This document shows positions 5,401 through 32,667 of a DNA stretch of 32,667 nt, piece after piece. The DNA comes from a virus, in the UHGV virus genome UHGV-0112844; one strand, written 5' to 3'. The first letter of the stretch is position 1; each line of letters begins with the position of its first letter. Under the pieces are notes generated by a model, which did no database searches, had not been told where the DNA came from, and was given only the letters and a program-made list of their open reading frames with translations. A program made the position numbers and the translations under genes.

Positions 5401-5418
5401 TGTGTCACCGATGGCACA
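5401..5418 (+). promoter_or_regulatory. Ogr/Delta-type late promoter activator box TGT-N12-ACA (PV-like)
   Basis: TGTgtcaccgatggcACA lies about 45 bp upstream of the V start. This is the dyad characteristic of P2 late promoters. Confidence 0.6.
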
Positions 5419-5464: not shown

Positions 5465-6043
5465 ATGAACGCACAACTAACCGAAATCATGCGCCTTATC
5501 ACCAACCTGATCCGCACCGGCACCGTAACCGAAGTGGACCGGGAAAACTGGCTGTGCCGGGTGAAAGTGGGCGAGCTTGAAACCAACTGGATTAACTGGC
5601 TGACACTGCGCGCAGGCGGTGCCCGTACATGGTGGTGCCCGTCGCCGGATGAGCAGGTGGTGGTGCTGAGTATGGGCGGCAATCTGGAAACCGCTTTTGC
5701 CTTACCTGCGATCTATTCCAACCAGTACGCCCCGCCGTCGGACTCTGTGGACGGCTGCGTAACGGAATACCCGGACGGTGGCTGGTTTGAATATGAACCC
5801 GCGACCGGCCGCTGGCATGTGCGGGGCATCAAATCCATGGTGATCGAGGCTGCAGATAACATAACCCTGAAAACGGGGGAATTTGTGGTGGAAGCAAGCA
5901 ACACGCGCATAAACAGCGAAGTGGTGATCAATGGTGGCGTCACCCAGGGCGGCGGCGCCATGAGTTCTAACGGGATCGTAGTCGATAAACACGGTCATAC
6001 CGGCGTTAAGTCCGGCGGTGATACATCGGGAGGTCCGGTATGA
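5465..6043 (+). CDS. V: baseplate spike protein gpV
   Basis: 192 aa at the synteny position. The Gly-rich C-terminus is typical of gpV. Confidence 0.85.
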   Translation: MNAQLTEIMRLITNLIRTGTVTEVDRENWLCRVKVGELETNWINWLTLRAGGARTWWCPSPDEQVVVLSMGGNLETAFALPAIYSNQYAPPSDSVDGCVTEYPDGGWFEYEPATGRWHVRGIKSMVIEAADNITLKTGEFVVEASNTRINSEVVINGGVTQGGGAMSSNGIVVDKHGHTGVKSGGDTSGGPV

Positions 6044-7892: not shown

Positions 7893-9280
7893 GCGCAAAA
7901 TTTTATACCCTGCTGACGGATATTGGCGCGGCGAAACTGGCAAGCGCTGCCGCGCTCGGTGTGCCGCTGAAAATTACCCAGATGGCGGTGGGGGATGGCG
8001 GCGGCGTGCTTCCAACTCCCAGCGCACAACAGACGAAGCTGGTTTCCGAAAAGCGGCGCGCTGACCTGAACATGCTTTACATCGATCCGCAGAACAGCAG
8101 CCAGATTATTGCTGAGCAGGTGATTCCTGAAACTGAGGGCGGTTGGTGGATTCGTGAGGTTGGGCTGTTTGATGAAACGGGCGCGCTGATCGCAGTGGGT
8201 AACTGCCCGGAGAGCTACAAGCCGCAGCTGGCAGAGGGAAGCGGCCGCACGCAGACAGTGCGCATGGTACTGATTACCAGCAGCACCGATAACATTACGC
8301 TGAAAATTGACCCGTCCGTAGTGCTGGCTACCCGAAAATATGTGGATGACAAGGTGCTGGAACTAAAGGTGTATGTAGATGAGCTGATGGCGGCGCATCT
8401 TGCAGCAGCTGATCCGCATACGCAATATGCGCCAAAAGCCAGCCCGACGTTTACCGGCACCCCAAAAGCCCCGACTGCAGCTGCAGGTAACAATACTACT
8501 CAGCTTGCCACAACTGCGTTTGTGCAGGCGGCTCTGATCGCCCTGGTGAATGGCGCCCCGGCGACACTGGACACGCTGAAAGAAATTGCTGCGGCTATCA
8601 ACAACGATCCTAATTTCAGCACCACCATTACTAACGCTCTTGCACTCAAAGCCCCACTGGCAAGCCCGGCCCTGACCGGAACACCGACGGCACCCACGGC
8701 TGCGCAGACTGTCAACAATACGCAAATTGCCACTACTGCTTTCGTAAAATCAGCTCTGGCTGCGCTTGTTGGCTCATCACCTGCTGCGCTTGATACCCTG
8801 AACGAGCTGGCGGCGGCGTTAGGAAACGATCCTAACTTTGCAACCACCATGACAAATGCGCTGGCAGGCAAGCAGCCGCTGGATAGCACGCTAACAACTT
8901 TGTCTGGAAAAACCGCAGATGGGATTATCGAATACCTTCGTTTGGGAGAAGCGGCAAAAATGGAGGCGGCCACCGCACAGATCGGTGCTAATGGATGGCT
9001 ATATATTCCCGTTACTGGCGGCAAAAAAATGCTGCTGCAGTGGGGGCTTTTAACCGGTGCGAGTAATTATTCTTTTAAATTCCCAATTGCATTTCCCGTC
9101 GGTGGTTTATGCCTGGTTGCTATGGCCCATACAACTGATTCCGCTGATGTGAGCATGGTAACTATGACTAATGGATTTATCAGGGATAAAACCAGCGCGT
9201 TTGCTTTGTGCGCCAGAACAGTGAACGGCGTGCAGCAACCTTTTGAACGTAGCGTTTACTGGTTCGCTGTTGGCTACTGA
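7889..9280 (+). CDS. H: tail fibre protein gpH (constant N-terminus + currently resident variable C-terminal cassette)
   Basis: 463 aa with a P2 gpH-like N-terminus. Two ~72-aa internal fibre repeats lie in the middle (PTFTGTPKAPTAA…/PALTGTPTAPTAA…). A crossover site lies at the LRLGEAAK codons, and the protein ends …WFAVGY. Confidence 0.9.
   Translation: MSAKFYTLLTDIGAAKLASAAALGVPLKITQMAVGDGGGVLPTPSAQQTKLVSEKRRADLNMLYIDPQNSSQIIAEQVIPETEGGWWIREVGLFDETGALIAVGNCPESYKPQLAEGSGRTQTVRMVLITSSTDNITLKIDPSVVLATRKYVDDKVLELKVYVDELMAAHLAAADPHTQYAPKASPTFTGTPKAPTAAAGNNTTQLATTAFVQAALIALVNGAPATLDTLKEIAAAINNDPNFSTTITNALALKAPLASPALTGTPTAPTAAQTVNNTQIATTAFVKSALAALVGSSPAALDTLNELAAALGNDPNFATTMTNALAGKQPLDSTLTTLSGKTADGIIEYLRLGEAAKMEAATAQIGANGWLYIPVTGGKKMLLQWGLLTGASNYSFKFPIAFPVGGLCLVAMAHTTDSADVSMVTMTNGFIRDKTSAFALCARTVNGVQQPFERSVYWFAVGY
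8925..8950 (+). other. Gin/Hin-type inversion crossover site inside gene H (left boundary of invertible region)
   Basis: The sequence CCTT CGTTTGGGAGAAGCGGCAAAA encodes LRLGEAAK. The same motif recurs four times in inverted orientation downstream, with the same core dinucleotide TT/AA. Confidence 0.7.
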
Positions 9281-9375
9281 CGTCAAAATATTGTGTTATT
9301 ACTCACACAAAGTAGCTAGATAATTTTTTTATGAAACCGCACTTACGATCTGAGTTTCAAACTAAGGAGTGCGTT

Positions 9376-9913: not shown

Positions 9914-10283
9914 TTAAAAACCTATTGCAAACCACGTAAACATACGGGAGTTACCAGGCAGCGTATCATCAAGGAAAAACTGAGCATTAGCGCCGGTTTT
10001 CGTTGGGTAGCCGACTGAAACAGCTTGCCTTAAAGTTCTATACGATGGCACATAATCATAATTTGATGCCCTTACGCCTGCGCTTGAATATACACCGAAG
10101 CAAGCCGCCGGGAACGCGACAGGAAACGTAATATCACAATTATATGTAGTGCTTGTTACGCCTCCCTCCCATCGCCCCACTGCACTATTAACATAACACC
10201 GCCGGTTAGCGGGAATTTCGCCCAGCCGCTGTTAGACAAAACGCCGCTCGCTGCTGCGAGTTTTGCCGCTTCTCCCAAACGAA
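9914..10283 (-). pseudogene. silent alternative tail-fibre C-terminal cassette A, disrupted by a frameshift
   Basis: In frame with the crossover site it reads …LGEAAKLAAASGVLSNSGWAKFPLTGGVMLIVQWGDGREA* and stops. The homologous continuation (GGVTSTTYNCDITFPVAFP…WFAIGF*) is in another frame from about 10180 (GTG-start ORF 9914..10180). Other cassettes are co-linear (…QWG…FPIAFP…AIGY). Confidence 0.65.
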
Positions 10284-10295
10284 CGTTTTAACTAT
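10270..10295 (-). other. inverted crossover site A
   Basis: TTGCCGCTTCTCCCAAACG AA CGTTTTA is the reverse complement of the H site, with the core dinucleotide preserved. Confidence 0.7.
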
Positions 10296-10659
10296 CTCCC
10301 TATTGCTAAAAGGCGCGTACCGCCGTTATTAGCTGTTGATAAATTTCTGAGTAAAATTGACTTCTTAGCATCAGTTACAGAAGCTGCATCTATGGCAATG
10401 GATATAGGTGTCGTTCCATTGGCGGCGGCAGCGGGAGCCGCAACCACAAACATCATCGCGTTAGGGAAAGTGATCGGATAAATTACTTCAAGCGCCCCAC
10501 CTGCCGGTATTCCGTTAACCCCAGCACATTGGATAATTATCCCGTTTGGAAGTTTGCAATAACCACTAACCCCGCTAAAAGCGTTAGCGAAAAAGCTCAT
10601 ATCCGGCAGCTGGTTGGCTGCCGTCCCAACTTCCCTTTTTGCCGCTTCCCCCAAACGAA
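10292..10659 (-). CDS. silent alternative tail-fibre C-terminal cassette B (promoterless, begins at crossover site)
   Basis: Reads (LRL)[25 protein letters not shown]…YPITFPNAMMF…LLAIGR*. It is homologous to cassette D and to the gpH C-terminal architecture. Confidence 0.7.
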
Positions 10660-10671
10660 CGTTATTTGCTT
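10646..10671 (-). other. inverted crossover site B
   Basis: TTGCCGCTTCCCCCAAACG AA CGTTATT. Confidence 0.7.
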
Positions 10672-11031
10672 AATATCCTATGGCTATAAACCGGAATGAC
10701 ACGTTTGCATTTAACGCATTTAGAACGGCTCCAGCCTGAGATAACTTAACCGCTCTTGTAGTAAAAGTTGAAAGGGTTGCAGGCGCTGCAGAACCAAACC
10801 CAACGCCAGCATCCTCAGGATTATTATGCGTAACATATACTTGTGCAAACACGGATGGGAACGCTACAGGAAGCGAAGATGTGTAGACCTCTCCACTACC
10901 TGCTGTATTAACAGCACCTTGCCCCCATTGAAGAATTAAATTTTTGTTACCACTCATCGGGATTTTGGCCCATCCGTTATAGCCAATAACACCGCTAACA
11001 GCTGGCAGCGTTGCCGCTTCCCCCAAACGAA
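10670..11031 (-). CDS. silent alternative tail-fibre C-terminal cassette C
   Basis: Reads GEAATLPAVSGVIGYNGWAKIPMSGNKNLILQWG…LPVAFP…FIAIGY*. It has the same GW-K-P…QWG…FP-AFP…AIGY skeleton as the resident gpH tip. Confidence 0.7.
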
Positions 11032-11043
11032 CGTTTAATACCC
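11018..11043 (-). other. inverted crossover site C
   Basis: TTGCCGCTTCCCCCAAACG AA CGTTTAA. It abuts or overlaps the stop codon of cassette D. Confidence 0.7.
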
Positions 11044-11393
11044 TATAGCCATCCAGTAAATAGAATTGGAGGTAGGAGTAACGTAAGTAAATCTGGCCTT
11101 AGTTGTAGACGTATTGCCAATATCGAATCCAGTAAAACGCATGGATGGATCGTTTGTAGACATTAAAGCGCTGAGATGTCTGAATGCAGTAGGGAATGCA
11201 ATTGGGAAAGAAATGTCAGTGGTTCCTACTGCCCCAGATGTGCCGTTGACGTTAAGCGCCCCCCATTGAATGATCAGCCCAGTCGGTAATTTTTGATACC
11301 CATTGAAACCTAAAGAACCGGCAAAGTTGCTCATATCAGGAAGCTGGTTTGCACCATTGCCGACCCCCCGTTTAGCTGCTTCCCCCAAACGAA
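11035..11393 (-). CDS. silent alternative tail-fibre C-terminal cassette D
   Basis: Translation from the site reads [27 protein letters not shown]…ISFPIAFP…WMAIGY*. Confidence 0.7.
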
Positions 11394-11405
11394 GGTTTTT
11401 TCTTC
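11380..11405 (-). other. inverted crossover site D (right boundary of invertible region)
   Basis: CTGCTTCCCCCAAACG AA GGTTTTT. Like the H site, its outer arm diverges (ACCTT rather than AACGTT). Confidence 0.65.
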
Positions 11406-11513
11406 ACCACGGTCATGATTGTCCGTGTTGGCCATTCTCTGCAGTACAGTCAGAAATGACCATGCTCGATAAAATGGTGGCATCATTCACCACTTTTTTA
11501 TGGGCGAAAAATC

Positions 11514-12101
11514 ATGCAAATCGGTTACGTGAGGGTGTCAACAAATGACCAAAACACGGCTTTACAACGAAATGCGCTGGAGTGCGCAGGATGTGAGCTG
11601 ATATTTGAGGACAAAATGAGCGGAAAAACCTCAGATCGGCCAGGGCTAAAGAAGGTCCTGCGCACACTCTCAGAAGGTGACACGCTGGTAGTTTGGAAGC
11701 TGGACAGATTAGGCAGGAGTATGCGGCATCTTGTTACTCTGATTGAAGACCTGCGAGGGAGAGGAGTAAATTTCCGCAGCCTGACAGATAGCATTGATAC
11801 ATCAACTCCGATGGGGCGTTTCTTTTTCCATGTTATGGGTGCCCTGGCAGAAATGGAGCGAGAGCTGATCGTAGAGCGAACCCGTGCCGGGCTGGCTGTA
11901 GCGCGTGCGCAAGGGAGGATTGGTGGCCGACGGCCAAAGCTATCAGAGGATGAGTGGGCGCAGATTGGCCGGTTGCTGGCTGCCGGAGAAACGCGAAAAC
12001 GCGTTGCTCTGATTTTTGATGTGGGTATATCAACGCTGTACCGCAAATTTCCCGCGTCTGCCGTGGCGCCATTGTCTGAACGCTCAGACACTCCTGTATA
12101 A
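11514..12101 (+). CDS. serine recombinase, Gin/Hin/Cin/Pin-family DNA invertase
   Basis: MQIGYVRVSTNDQNTALQRNAL… closely matches the Gin N-terminal catalytic domain (the position of Ser-10). 195 aa with a C-terminal HTH. It lies immediately downstream of the invertible cassettes, as in Mu G/gin. Confidence 0.92.
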   Translation: MQIGYVRVSTNDQNTALQRNALECAGCELIFEDKMSGKTSDRPGLKKVLRTLSEGDTLVVWKLDRLGRSMRHLVTLIEDLRGRGVNFRSLTDSIDTSTPMGRFFFHVMGALAEMERELIVERTRAGLAVARAQGRIGGRRPKLSEDEWAQIGRLLAAGETRKRVALIFDVGISTLYRKFPASAVAPLSERSDTPV

Positions 12102-12159
12102 ATGAACATGATTTCTCATTTATGTAACCTGAAATCAGGCACATAAGAGAGGCAAGGCT

Positions 12160-12912
12160 ATGCAAAAAGCAGTTATTGGCGCGGCAACTATTTACTGTGG
12201 TGACAGCCTGGAAATTTTGCGCGAACTCACTGGCGAATTTGATGCAGTGATTACTGATCCGCCTTATTCCAGCGGTGGTATGACGCGCAGTGATCGGCAG
12301 GCTAAACCCTCCGGGAAGTATGTAGGCAATAACAACTACCATGAGTTTTTCGGCGATAACAGAGACGTGCGCTCCTGGGCGTTCTGGATGACGCAGTGGA
12401 TGAGTCAGGTTAACCGCCTGGTTAAGTCAGGCGGCTATGCCATGGTTTTCACTGACTGGCGGCAGCTTCCAACGCTTACTGACGTTTTCCAGGCTGGCGG
12501 TTTTGTGTGGCGGGGGCTGATTCCGTGGGATAAAACGCTTTCAACGCGTGCGCCTCATACCGGTTATTTTCGTCATCAGTGCGAATACGTGGTTTGGGGA
12601 AGTAACGGACCATTGCCTAAAAGTCTGCATGGTGGACCCTGGCCGGGCATGGTAACTCGTCGGGTTATTCCGTCTCAAAAACTCCATATGACCGGCAAAC
12701 CGATTGAGCTTATGGAGAGCCTGGTTGCTCCCGTTCCTCCTGGCGGCCATATTCTTGATCCATTTATGGGGAGTGCATCAACTGGCGTTGCTGCGCTGAG
12801 GAAGGGATACAAATTTACCGGGATTGAAATGAGCCAGCAGTATTTTGATATCTCATGCGAACGCCTGGAAAAAGAAAACGCAGATATCCGCGCGGGCGTA
12901 TTGTGTGATTAA
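12160..12912 (+). CDS. DNA methyltransferase, beta-class N6-adenine/N4-cytosine (N6_N4_Mtase family), orphan
   Basis: Motif IV DPPY at aa 33-36 precedes motif I FMGSASTG at about aa 195. This IV-before-I order defines the beta class. No nuclease partner is adjacent. It sits in the Z/fun position between G/invertase and FI. Confidence 0.85.
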
Positions 12913-12919
12913 GGGAACA
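12902..12919 (+). promoter_or_regulatory. Ogr-type late promoter box TGT-N12-ACA (PF-like) overlapping MTase stop codon
   Basis: TGTgtgattaagggaACA lies about 75 bp upstream of FI. Confidence 0.55.
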
Positions 12920-12992
12920 ATGCCGCGTAGCTGTTTGCGCGGCCCATTCAATTCACCATAGGGCGAAACCTAAACACCGGAGGGTTCGCCGT

Positions 12993-14165
12993 ATGGCTCA
13001 GGATTATCACCACGGTGTGCGCGTCGTTGAGGTCAACGATGGCACCCGCCCCATTTCAACAGTAAGCACGGCAATTGTCGGTATGGTCTGTACCGGCGAT
13101 GATGCAGATGCGTCCGTGTTCCCCCTCAATAAGCCGGTCCTGCTCACCGACGTGCTGACCGCCAGCGGTAAAGCAGGCGAGTCCGGCACGCTGGCTCGCT
13201 CGCTGGATGCAATTGCCGACCAGGCTAAACCCGTGACCGTTGTTGTGCGCGTTGCACAGGGTGAAACCGAAGCGGAAACAACTTCCAACATTATCGGCGG
13301 CGTGACAACTGACGGTAAAAAAACGGGCATGAAAGCGCTGTTATCTGCGCAGTCCCAGCTCGGCGTTAAGCCGCGCATACTTGGCGTGCCGGGGCATGAC
13401 ACGCAGGCGGTTGCCACTGAGCTGCTGAGCGTGGCGCAGAGTCTGCGCGGCTTCGCCTATCTGTCAGCCTACGGCTGCAAAACGGTAGAGGAGGCCATTG
13501 CCTACCGCGCTAATTTCAGCCAGCGCGAGGGGATGCTGATCTGGCCTGATTTCATCAGTTTTGACACCGTGCTGAACGCTGACGCAACGGCTTACGCCTC
13601 AGCCCGTGCGCTTGGCCTGCGTGCCAAAATTGACGAACAGACCGGCTGGCACAAATCCCTGTCCAACGTAGGCGTGAACGGCGTCACCGGCATTTCTGCT
13701 GATGTGTTCTGGGATTTGCAGGACCCGGCAACCGATGCGGGGCTGCTGAACCAGAATGATGTCACCACGCTGATCCGCAAAGACGGTTTCCGCTTCTGGG
13801 GTTCCCGCTGCCTCAGTGACGATCCTCTGTTTGCCTTTGAAAACTACACCCGCACCGCTCAGGTACTGGCTGACACCATCGCAGAAGCGCACATGTGGGC
13901 GGTGGATGGCGTGCTTAACCCGTCGCTGGCCCGCGACATTATCGAAGGTATTCGCGCCAAACTGCGCAACCTGAAAACGCAGGGCTACATCATCGGCGCC
14001 GACTGCTGGCTGGATGAGTCCGTAAACGATAAAGATTCCCTGAAAGCCGGGAAGCTCACTATCGATTACGACTATACGCCGGTACCGCCTCTGGAAAACC
14101 TGATGCTGCGCCAGCGCATCACCGATCAGTATCTGCTGGATTTCTCCAGCCAGGTAAGCGCGTAA
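12993..14165 (+). CDS. FI: tail sheath protein gpFI
   Basis: 390 aa at the synteny position. Size matches the P2 contractile sheath protein. Confidence 0.9.
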
Positions 14166-20199: not shown

Positions 20200-20271
20200 T
20201 AATGTTCACAAAATGGATGTTCGTGTATCATTATGGGATTGCGGGTAATGACTTGGGGAGAAACGGATATG

Positions 20272-20487
20272 ATGAATTGTCCGAAATGCGGACACGCGGC
20301 ACATACTCGCAGTAGCTTTCGTGTATCAGATAATACGAAAGAGCGTTATTGCCAGTGCCAAAACATAAACTGTGGAACCACTTTTGTTACTCATGAAACC
20401 GTAGTGCGCTTTATCGTAACTCCCGGACAGGTCGATCATGTGCCTCCGCACCCTCTAAACAGTGGTCAGGGACACATGAATTTTTGA
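20272..20487 (+). CDS. ogr: Ogr/Delta-family zinc-finger late transcription activator
   Basis: MNCPKCGHAAHTRSSF…RYCQCQNINCGTTF… carries the Cys4 motif of P2 Ogr. 71 aa from the second ATG. The track ORF starts 39 nt upstream. Confidence 0.85.
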   Translation: MNCPKCGHAAHTRSSFRVSDNTKERYCQCQNINCGTTFVTHETVVRFIVTPGQVDHVPPHPLNSGQGHMNF

Positions 20488-21805: not shown

Positions 21806-22705
21806 CTATTGAGATAAAGAATTATTATCACGCATTAAGGTTTGCCACTGTTCTTCACTGAGGATTTTGAGCGGAACTCCTTTATTGTCACGATAATCAA
21901 TAGCCTGTTCTATCTTTCTTCCGAAGCTTTGAAATTTCCAATCCTTAGAGCTGAGGGCACCAATAATTAGATAGTCCAAATCTTGAGTAACACGATCAAC
22001 AATTTGGCAGCCAAGCTGTAAAAGGTCACTTTCACATTGTCTACGGGAGCCACATAGAAACTTACCAGTGAGACAGACTTTACTATCTGTAGGGTTAAAC
22101 TCATCAATTAGGTCAACAGGCGATGTTGTGGAATATCCATCCACAATACCCTCAGAAATATTTGAGCCAGTGAAAGCAGTAATTTCTTGTAATAATTTGG
22201 TGCGTTCTTCGTCTGTTATCACTCCATCACTCAGGATTGATTGAACAAGTTCGTAAAGATGTTTACCGGGATAGTTGCTTTTTAAAGCTGCATTTGTAGA
22301 TAAGAACCAGTTTAAATAGCTGATTTCTTCATCGCTCAAATGATAGTCGGAAGCAAGCCCCTTACATAGACCCTCTAGCAAATGCTTGTCAGAGTCAGCT
22401 GAGTAAAGGTCTATGTTAGGAGTATCCATCAACCCGCGTTGCATTTCATGGAGCAGGTCTTTCAATTCGTCTAATTCAGCTTTTTCAACTACACCATCCG
22501 AAAGAATTTCACTTATTTTATTTCTGATGCAGTTTACGAAATAATTTTGGGAAAGAACGTCTGATTCCATCAGCCATGTATCAAGGAAAATCATTTCTTT
22601 TTCACTTAGTTTCCCGTCACAGGTCATCCCTTCAATCAGATTGATTAAGTTAGCGATGGCTTTATCTCTATTATGTGTATAGTTGAAAGCGCTAAATTGA
22701 GTCAT
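21806..22705 (-). CDS. hypothetical moron protein: TerB-like repeat N-terminal region + C-terminal BRCT-like domain
   Basis: 299 aa. Four DG-x5-E-x3-L motifs (DGKLSEKEMIFL, DGVVEKAELDEL, DYHLSDEEISYL, DGVITDEERTKL) resemble TerB/DjlA-N folds. The C-terminus KVCLTGKF…LGCQIV…DYLIIGALSSKDWKFQSFGRKIEQA…GVPLKILSEEQW looks like a BRCT. GC is visibly lower than its neighbours. An RBS (aaggaa) lies 8 nt upstream, and the start is 11 nt downstream of the cI stop. Confidence 0.6.
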   Translation of the reverse strand: MTQFSAFNYTHNRDKAIANLINLIEGMTCDGKLSEKEMIFLDTWLMESDVLSQNYFVNCIRNKISEILSDGVVEKAELDELKDLLHEMQRGLMDTPNIDLYSADSDKHLLEGLCKGLASDYHLSDEEISYLNWFLSTNAALKSNYPGKHLYELVQSILSDGVITDEERTKLLQEITAFTGSNISEGIVDGYSTTSPVDLIDEFNPTDSKVCLTGKFLCGSRRQCESDLLQLGCQIVDRVTQDLDYLIIGALSSKDWKFQSFGRKIEQAIDYRDNKGVPLKILSEEQWQTLMRDNNSLSQ

Positions 22706-25027: not shown

Positions 25028-25254
25028 TGGCTGATTCAATGGACCTCGTACAGCAGCGCGTTGAAGAAGAACGCCAGCGCCACATCCACACCGCCCGCAA
25101 TAAGGCACCGGGCGTTTCCCGTGTTCTCTGCATTGATTGCGATGCGCCGATCCCGCCAGCTCGCCGCCGCGCCATTCCGGGCGTGCAGTGCTGCGTCACT
25201 TGTCAGGAAATTGCAGAGCTGAAAGGCAAACACTACAACGGGGGTGCTGTATGA
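25027..25254 (+). CDS. TraR/DksA-family C4 zinc-finger protein
   Basis: CIDCDAPIP…(17 aa)…CCVTCQE is the C4 finger spacing of phage TraR-like proteins. Confidence 0.75.
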   Translation: MADSMDLVQQRVEEERQRHIHTARNKAPGVSRVLCIDCDAPIPPARRRAIPGVQCCVTCQEIAELKGKHYNGGAV

Positions 25255-26108
25255 GCACTATCCTGAAATGGGCGGGAAATAAAACCGCCATCATGCCGGA
25301 ACTGATTAAGCACCTTCCTGCTGGCCCGCGACTGGTTGAACCTTTCGCGGGTTCATGCGCTGTAATGATGGCGACAGACTATCCTCATTATCTTGTCGCG
25401 GATATTAATCCCGATCTTATCAATCTCTATAAAAAAATTGCCCTTGATTGTGAAGCTTTCATATCACGCGCAAAAAATATTTTTGCGATTGCGAATAGAG
25501 AAGTGGCTTATTACAACATTAGGCATGAATTTAATCATTCCTCTGAAATTACTGATTTCATGAAAGCAGTATATTTCCTTTATCTGAATCGTCATGGTTA
25601 TCGTGGGCTGTGCCGCTATAACTTGAGCGGTCATTTTAATGTCCCTTACGGTAATTATAAAAATCCGTATTTTCCTGAAAATGAGATACGCGCTTTTGCA
25701 GAAAAGGCTCAAAGCGCAACGTTTATCTGTGCCAGCTATGACGAAACACTGGCGCTGCTGCGGACGGGTGATGTTGTTTATTGTGACCCACCATACGATG
25801 GCACGTTTACCGCTTATCACACTGCCGGTTTTACGGAGGACGATCAGTATCATCTGGCGTCTATTCTTGAACGCCGGTCATCAGAAGGTCACCCGGTTAT
25901 CGTGTCCAACAGCGACACGTCCCTGACCCGTTCGCTTTATCGTAATTTTACCCGCCATCGCATCACTGCAAAGCGCAGCATGGGCGTGGCTGCCGGTGAT
26001 AGTAAGTCCGCAGCGGAAATAATCGCCGTTTCAGGAGCAACACGCTTTAACCGGGTTTATTCCACACACGGGGATGTGTGCTCGGTTATTTTAGAGGTGC
26101 GGGCGTGA
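25251..26108 (+). CDS. dam: Dam-like N6-adenine DNA methyltransferase (MethyltransfD12 family)
   Basis: KWAGNK…EPFAGSCAV…[10 protein letters not shown]…VYCDPPY motifs. The ATG at 25251 overlaps the previous stop (ATGA). The track ORF 25137.. is an in-frame upstream extension. The centre of the gene is AT-rich. Confidence 0.85.
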
Positions 26109-28874: not shown

Positions 28875-29108
28875 ATGCGCATTGAAATAATGATCGATAA
28901 AGAGCAGAAGATTAGCCAGGCTACACTGGACGCCCTTGAATCCGAGCTTTACCGTAATTTGCGCCCTCTGTATCCCAAAACAGCAATTCGTATCCGTAAG
29001 GGCAGCGCCAACGGCGTTGAGCTGAGCGGGTTAAAACTGGATGAAGACAAAAAGCGAGTGATGGAAATAATGCAGCAGGTCTGGGAGGATGACAGCTGGT
29101 TACACTAG
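28875..29108 (+). CDS. DinI-family protein
   Basis: MRIEIMIDKEQKISQATLDALESELYRNL…MEIMQQVWEDDSW aligns with E. coli DinI (MRIEVTIAK…LQETWES). Confidence 0.75.
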   Translation: MRIEIMIDKEQKISQATLDALESELYRNLRPLYPKTAIRIRKGSANGVELSGLKLDEDKKRVMEIMQQVWEDDSWLH

Positions 29109-32453: not shown

Positions 32454-32540
32454 AAGCCCAACGCGTTGTTTACACGCGCCCATCACCGCAAACATAAGGC
32501 TCTGAACGTGTTACGAACTAACTAACCGGAGCCGGACCGA

Positions 32541-32667
32541 TGGCAAAAAAATCTAAGCGTTTTCGTATTGGGGTCGAAGGGGCCACTACTGACGGGCGCG
32601 TTATTGAGCGTGAATGGCTCACCCAGATGGCAGCGAGCTATAACCCGCAGGTATACACCGCGCTGAT
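32541..32667 (+). CDS. O: capsid scaffolding protein gpO, N-terminal 42 codons (continues at position 1)
   Basis: MAKKSKRFRIGVEGATTDGRVI… resembles the P2 gpO N-terminus. It runs off the window end in frame with 2..700. Confidence 0.85.

Follow-up and report, generated by a model that had tools for sequence, protein, structure and literature searches.

Several P2-like and Mu-like phages carry a DNA methyltransferase among their late genes. In the Burkholderia P2-like phage KS5, gp20 is an N-4/N-6 DNA methylase and gp21 is Com (Lynch et al. 2010, PMC3091744). In phage Mu, the control of modification genes by Com is tied to late, toxic expression, with mom serving in anti-restriction, and Com-linked methyltransferases take the place of mom in other Mu-like phages (PMC3299994). 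The Hia5/Hin1523 family is alpha-class and Dam-related, with an N-terminal FxGxG and the DPPY motif near residue 194 (PMC3299994). Another prophage methyltransferase, M.EcoGII, is silent in normal growth and is presumed to be on in the lytic cycle only (PMC5778455). The interval between the tail-fiber assembly gene G and the sheath gene FI, the Z/fun locus, is recognized as a second hotspot in phages of the P2 group (PMC9519451), and in the P2 annotation (AF063097) it is fun(Z) that occupies the G-to-FI interval.

We analyzed a stretch of DNA of 32,667 nt, here called the window, which holds the whole genome of a temperate phage of the 186/P2 type in circularly permuted form. The gpO ORF bridges both ends of the window (32540-32667 joined to 1-700), and the gene set comprises CI/CII-type immunity genes, an integrase, gpA, an Ogr/Delta activator, and the usual P2 late genes. 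This is a P2/186-type prophage of Enterobacter cloacae complex hosts and is very common there. An earlier, sequence-only reading of this DNA had described a methyltransferase wedged between the invertase and the late-promoter box of FI in the variable G-FI slot, and the annotation of the neighbors agrees with that placement (Table 1); the gap from the invertase to the methyltransferase is 58 nt, and that from the methyltransferase to FI is 80 nt. The same reading had counted two methyltransferases in the phage, and the Dam-like enzyme was indeed found in the early operon.

Table 1. Coordinates of the methyltransferase locus and of related features in the window
Feature	Position	Strand	Remarks
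Serine invertase, Gin/Hin/Cin family	11514-12101	+	Resolvase and HTH_7; upstream neighbor of the methyltransferase
Putative Ogr-type box, ATTGT-N12-ACA	12071-12090	+	ATTGTCTGAACGCTCAGACA; in the last codons of the invertase gene
AT-rich inverted repeat	12097-12124	+	TAAATGA 12099-12105, TCATTTA 12116-12122; weak, not conserved
27-bp imperfect palindrome	12120-12146	+	TTATGTAACCTGAAATCAGGCACATAA; 5' of the methyltransferase Shine-Dalgarno
Putative -10-like element TAACCT	12125-12130	+	Same spacing from box as CAACCT in PV of this phage
Shine-Dalgarno GAGAGG	12147-12152	+	7 nt 5' of the methyltransferase ATG; read off the sequence
Methyltransferase CDS, beta-class N6/N4	12160-12912	+	250 aa; ATG start, TAA stop at 12910-12912
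PF activator box, TGT-N12-ACA	12902-12919	+	TGTGTGATTAAGGGAACA; encloses the methyltransferase stop
GC-rich 9-bp hairpin	12922-12943	+	-15.2 kcal/mol, z -2.8; no U-tract
PF -10-like element CACCAT	12954-12959	+	Within invariant TTCACCATAGGGCG
Tail sheath FI	12993-14165	+	Downstream neighbor of the methyltransferase
Ogr/Delta-type late activator	20233-20487	+	PF04606, 75.9 bits
Second methyltransferase, Dam-like, D12 class	25137-26108	+	Early operon; PF02086, 246 bits

The gene is a solitary (orphan) methyltransferase within the phage, as had been claimed. Its flanks are the invertase and the sheath gene, and no nuclease domain was found in any ORF of the phage genome that was tested, which covered the neighbors and the other unassigned ORFs. 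Two further genes of this genome deserve mention. A 298-aa ORF on the minus strand (21806-22705), flanked by the integrase and cI, belongs to no Pfam family; its matches are phrog_3989 (unknown function) and, weakly, PADLOC PDC-S48, and it is a candidate for lysogenic-conversion or defense cargo. A DinI-like gene (phrog_189; 28875-29108, plus strand) lies in the short gpA-portal interval, which is the old/tin hotspot of P2.

The methyltransferase matched Pfam PF01555 (N6_N4_Mtase) with 93.3 bits against a cutoff of 26.7. Its DPPY motif (residues 33 to 36) comes before FMGSASTG (residues 202 to 209), which is the beta-class order, and both motifs are invariant in 30 homologues. These data bear out the original description of a 250-aa beta-class N6A/N4C enzyme with this motif order. 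All 73 columns that are invariant among the 30 homologues are present in the window copy. An AlphaFold model of the protein (pLDDT 82, pTM 0.83) had CcrM, M1.HpyAVI, M.BceJIV, and rotifer N4CMT as its best Foldseek matches (E of ~1e-16 and TM of 0.65 to 0.71), with further structural matches of the predicted model to PvuII, MboIIA, and RsrI. The full-length protein also aligned end to end with the compact M1.HpyAVI (232 aa). Since the ORF is intact, the invariant residues are kept, and the predicted fold matches the beta class, we judge that the enzyme is not degraded; the homology searches did not turn up the disrupted or inactive enzyme that the sequence-only reading had allowed for.

As for the target, the DPPY motif favors adenine rather than cytosine, and JGI labels relatives as adenine specific; PF01555 itself includes N4 enzymes as well as N6 enzymes, and one of the closest folds is that of the rotifer N4C enzyme. 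The central region of the family is very strongly conserved (a stretch of 24 residues), which suggests that one specificity is common to the whole family. More specific assignments were tried and rejected. The CcrM equivalog (NCBIfam NF050803) scored 58.1 against a cutoff of 830, the YhdJ equivalog (NCBIfam NF008572) scored 51.8 against a cutoff of 292, and PRK13699 fell far under its cutoff. The nonspecific Hia5/Hin1523 family is alpha-class, with a motif order the reverse of that found here, and the work on Burkholderia H111 gp10/gp51 was dropped as a guide to specificity, with no homology link made. A search for a characterized close relative that would give the target, which included the literature on BPP-1 Bpm and on Enterobacter methylomes, found none.

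The exact protein, named “MULTISPECIES: DNA methyltransferase [Enterobacteriaceae]” in the database, was present on 522 public contigs, mostly from the Enterobacter cloacae complex. Its 90% cluster has 247 members, and 6843 homologues were found at an E of <= 1e-10. Because nucleotide searches of deposited phages and of complete E. coli genomes gave matches to the invertase alone, the genomic context was drawn from protein-guided loci. In every relative with at least 82% identity (IMG/VR and GTDB) whose contig reaches far enough downstream, 84 nt separate the methyltransferase from FI, which follows it, and the invertase usually precedes the pair. A relative with 74-75% identity occupies the same slot in Sodalis prophages, with different neighbors.

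A Com-like CxxC...CxxC ORF precedes or overlaps the methyltransferase in Chuche, Smp131, KS5, Acidovorax prophages, and a Brachymonas MAG contig (L010). The com-methyltransferase pair prolongs the late P-Q operon on the same strand in the Acidovorax prophages and Smp131, and in an E. coli Mu-like prophage the homologue lies between DUF1804 and the large terminase. With relatives placed behind Com or inside late operons, the family appears to be typically wired for late expression. The arrangement itself is not novel, since the order in KS5 is G, Com, methylase, FI, and a methyltransferase in the G-FI slot was thus already published in 2010. Novelty, and that of a mild sort, is limited to the Com-less variant, which has its own candidate late promoter.

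Two related phages, L054 (3932-4666) and L058, have another, noninvertible tail-fiber module. Here, homology to the methyltransferase starts at residue 31, just before DPPY, and the first 30 residues together with the upstream box have been replaced after the swap of the tail-fiber module. This copy is probably an inactive remnant that marks the recombination junction. The natural loss of the N terminus shows that the gene is dispensable for the prophage.

In the window, the region upstream of the invertase is a multiple-inversion tail-fiber switch. H contains one cix/gix-like crossover site (8934-8957, plus strand), and inverted copies lie at ~10262-10289, 10636-10662, 11011-11034, and 11376-11399. 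Each of the four inverted copies heads one alternative H C-terminal cassette on the minus strand (9914-10278, 10292-10654, 10670-11026, and 11035-11388); all cassettes start ...GEAAK, and the one at 9914-10278 seems to carry a frameshift. It is exactly within this inversion region that the public assemblies L001 and L032 break. Between the H stop and G, there is a perfect TTGT-N12-ACAA box at 9291-9310, 75.5 nt before the ATG of the true G start (9376) and within the invertible segment. G may have its own Ogr-type promoter that moves with it on inversion. In L038, G is on the strand opposite to the late operon. Only ~20 nt separate the invertase start codon from a terminator-like hairpin upstream of it (11475-11492), which can be read on either strand and leaves little room for an invertase promoter.

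We measured the late promoters of this phage against those of P2. The distance from the center of the box to the ATG is 82.5 nt for PF versus 83 nt for the mapped P2 pF activator site, 94.5 nt for PO versus 95 nt in P2, and 55.5 nt for PV in both phages. V (box at 5401-5418, start at 5465) appears to be leaderless, as in P2. The longest P ORF (start at 32495) overlaps the shared PO/PP box, and the true P start is probably an ATG at ~32390. The PF box overlaps the stop codon of the methyltransferase ahead of FI, as the sequence-only reading had proposed, and its placement is like that of P2 pF. In the sister clade (82% protein identity), the methyltransferase likewise ends within a TGT-N12-ACA box, and TTCACCATAGGGCG is common to both. 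Just past the methyltransferase stop, the GC-rich hairpin separates the PF box from the -10 region of PF and may act as an attenuator or a weak terminator.

A candidate activator box also precedes the methyltransferase. The TGT-N12-ACA dyad proper spans 12073-12090, and its center is 78.5 nt 5' of the ATG, which is compatible with the range of P2 geometry. The window shows no excess of the bare TGT-N12-ACA motif (7 found versus 6.0 expected), and thus the argument rests on the extended motif, its position, and its conservation. ATTGT-N12-ACA occurs five times in the window versus 0.92 expected, a number reached by none of 100 shuffles; the five matches are four sites, upstream of O/P, G, the methyltransferase, and FI, with PF counted on both strands. 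The full dyad TTGT-N12-ACAA is perfect at the four other late-gene sites and has one mismatch (ACAC) at the methyltransferase box, and one-mismatch matches to it are frequent by chance (15 found versus 12 expected). When the transcription start site (TSS) is set 55.5 nt from the center of the box, as in P2 pV and pO, TAACCT falls at -12 to -7, and the methyltransferase promoter would start at ~12137-12142. TAACCT is a poor sigma-70 -10 element.

Variants with at least 82% identity have the TGT and ACA arms fixed at the same offset, while the center of the box is variable. The nucleotides of the box read CCA TTG TCT GAA in the window invertase versus ATT GTC TGA, with a stop, in L032. The box is therefore kept while the invertase frame and stop differ, which implies conservation at the DNA level. 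In L055 and L056, the invertase is deleted and the box is kept. In a Sodalis prophage (L023), the upstream region is otherwise dissimilar and yet has a TGT-N12-ACG at this very offset; a MAFFT alignment of the Sodalis and window upstream regions gave no clear homology, and the box offset alone agrees. Taken together, this site is a putative Ogr-dependent promoter box for the methyltransferase.

The stretch between this box and the gene contains two symmetric elements. The 7-bp inverted repeat that had been noted upstream of the gene exists, one base from where it had been placed, but it is weak and not conserved. Its stem reaches 9 pairs when extended (12097-12105 with 12116-12124), the fold has -4.9 kcal/mol and was equaled by 21 of 200 shuffles, and the repeat is missing from the 82%-identity sister clade. 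We treated it as incidental. The 27-bp imperfect palindrome is invariant, save for its central base (12135), in a clade that otherwise differs by ~25%, and it may be the -10/TSS region, an operator, or a 5'-untranslated-region hairpin. Mom-like translational inhibition by a stem in the inverted repeat or in the 5' leader was considered and rejected, with folds that were unexceptional and a Shine-Dalgarno sequence that was not sequestered. No Com-like CxxC...CxxC ORF is present in the gap between the invertase and the methyltransferase, and the sole CxxC-rich frame upstream of the methyltransferase is an out-of-frame artifact inside the invertase gene.

From the identity, integrity, and location of the enzyme, the absence of a partner, and the boxes with their conservation, we infer a solitary adenine methyltransferase that is activated late by Ogr and modifies the DNA of the progeny before it is packaged, thereby evading restriction, a reading to which we give a probability of roughly 60%. 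In this model, Ogr would switch the methyltransferase on late in the lytic cycle from the gene's own promoter, made up of the candidate box, the TAACCT element, and a TSS near the position given above, with some read-through from the invertase gene possible. Replicated phage DNA would be its substrate, ahead of packaging, and the methylated progeny would resist restriction in the next host. The function of the enzyme would be analogous to that of Mu Mom and of the Com-controlled methyltransferases found in other P2-like and Mu-like phages. The sequence-only reading had offered both an anti-restriction self-methylase and an epigenetic regulator of the lysogen; the comparative evidence favors the former, and it likewise favors late expression.

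Of the alternatives, constitutive expression in the lysogen fares best, although we consider it unlikely. The host chromosome would then be methylated, and the gene would be a prophage epigenetic regulator or a stabilizer of lysogeny, transcribed from a sigma-70 promoter (TTGTCT at 12072-12077, a 19-bp spacer, and TATAAA at 12097-12102), by read-through from the invertase, or both. Most variants retain these hexamers, which form part of the conserved block, but their spacer is beyond the usual 16-18 bp, a promoter scan made no call, and the L057 variant has lost TATAAA (CTGTACGCATGA) while keeping TGT-N12-ACA. No terminator was found between the invertase and the methyltransferase. Precedents for a role in lysogeny are Z/fun of P2 itself, which is a lysogenic-conversion gene, and a Burkholderia prophage methylase reported to be necessary for the maintenance of lysogeny (bioRxiv 10.1101/2020.03.09.983379). 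The relatives of the gene studied here, however, sit in late operons or behind Com, and the N-terminus loss in L054 and L058 marks the gene as dispensable for the prophage.

We find it harder still to see the gene as silent or decaying cargo that was left by tail-fiber module exchange and has no current role, with a chance match as its upstream box. The replaced first 30 residues in L054 and L058 would fit such a history, as would the lack of enrichment of the bare motif and the silence of prophage methyltransferases such as M.EcoGII in normal growth (PMC5778455). Yet the ORF in the window is intact with every invariant residue kept, the identical protein recurs across the 522 contigs and close relatives across the 247-member cluster, and the gene, the upstream block, and the 84-nt FI spacing are kept in a clade at 74-82% divergence. 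Least credible is that the methyltransferase is the modification half of a defense system with its effector elsewhere in the prophage or host, e.g., a restriction or methylation-sensing nuclease, for which one can cite the known defense hotspot at G-FI (PMC9519451), best PADLOC matches to Type II methyltransferase models, and the unassigned 298-aa ORF, and against which stand the absence of a nuclease domain from all phage ORFs tested and the many unrelated phage contexts in which the same methyltransferase family travels alone.

The late anti-restriction methylase can also be cast in a more elaborate form, in which the Com translational switch of the relatives has, in this Enterobacter clade, been replaced by Ogr wiring, the site embedded in the coding 3' end of the invertase gene, and additional control by the 27-bp palindrome, all acting on a compact, toxic, Mom-like adenine methylase with a relaxed or short motif. 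We regard this form as speculative and rather doubtful. If it is true, the toxicity of a relaxed or short-motif enzyme would explain the tight control, and a P2-type phage would have broad anti-restriction.

The significance of the late anti-restriction reading is modest. It would mean that the G-FI hotspot carries counter-defense cargo, here a protective methylase, besides defense genes. The comparison of relatives suggests that one family has been brought into late expression in at least three ways: by a Com switch, by insertion into a late operon, and possibly by an Ogr box of its own. The specificity, if determined, would partly explain the host range and the restriction evasion of a common Enterobacter cloacae complex prophage and would aid in reading the methylomes of clinical Enterobacter strains. 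Current understanding is unchallenged by this gene, which is ordinary and already catalogued phage cargo.

Compared with the known systems, KS5 gp20 is of the same Pfam family and nearly the same length (249 versus 250 aa), with 40% identity (E of 9e-60). The gene has the same orientation and the same slot, from the tail-fiber assembly gene to FI, in the order G, com, methyltransferase, FI. In KS5, however, a Com-like translational regulator overlaps the methyltransferase start and there is no invertase, whereas the window phage lacks Com and has an invertase upstream and a candidate activator box before the gene.

The com-mom genes of Mu and their substitutes (Hia5, Hin1523, and Nma1821, and ORF47/48 of B3) are late, potentially toxic, and protective of phage DNA against restriction, as the window gene would be. 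In Mu, mom lies directly downstream of gin, much as the methyltransferase lies downstream of the invertase here. Mom has an acyltransferase fold and Hia5 is alpha-class, in contrast to the beta-class enzyme of the window, which comes without Com. The solved enzymes M1.HpyAVI (5HFJ), CcrM (6PBD), M.BceJIV (8URK), and N4CMT (8S9M) share its fold and motif order, but at 22-26% identity to the window protein, no specificity is transferable from these beta-class structures. M.EcoGII, described as a nonspecific adenine methyltransferase, is also beta-class, prophage encoded, and partnerless; it differs in being longer (349 aa) and larger in its central region.

Finally, fun(Z) of P2 occupies the same G-FI slot with pF immediately downstream, but it is not related to the methyltransferase, is encoded on the opposite strand, and acts in the exclusion of T5. 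The cargo in the window lies on the strand of the late genes and would be of a counter-defense type instead of a defense type.
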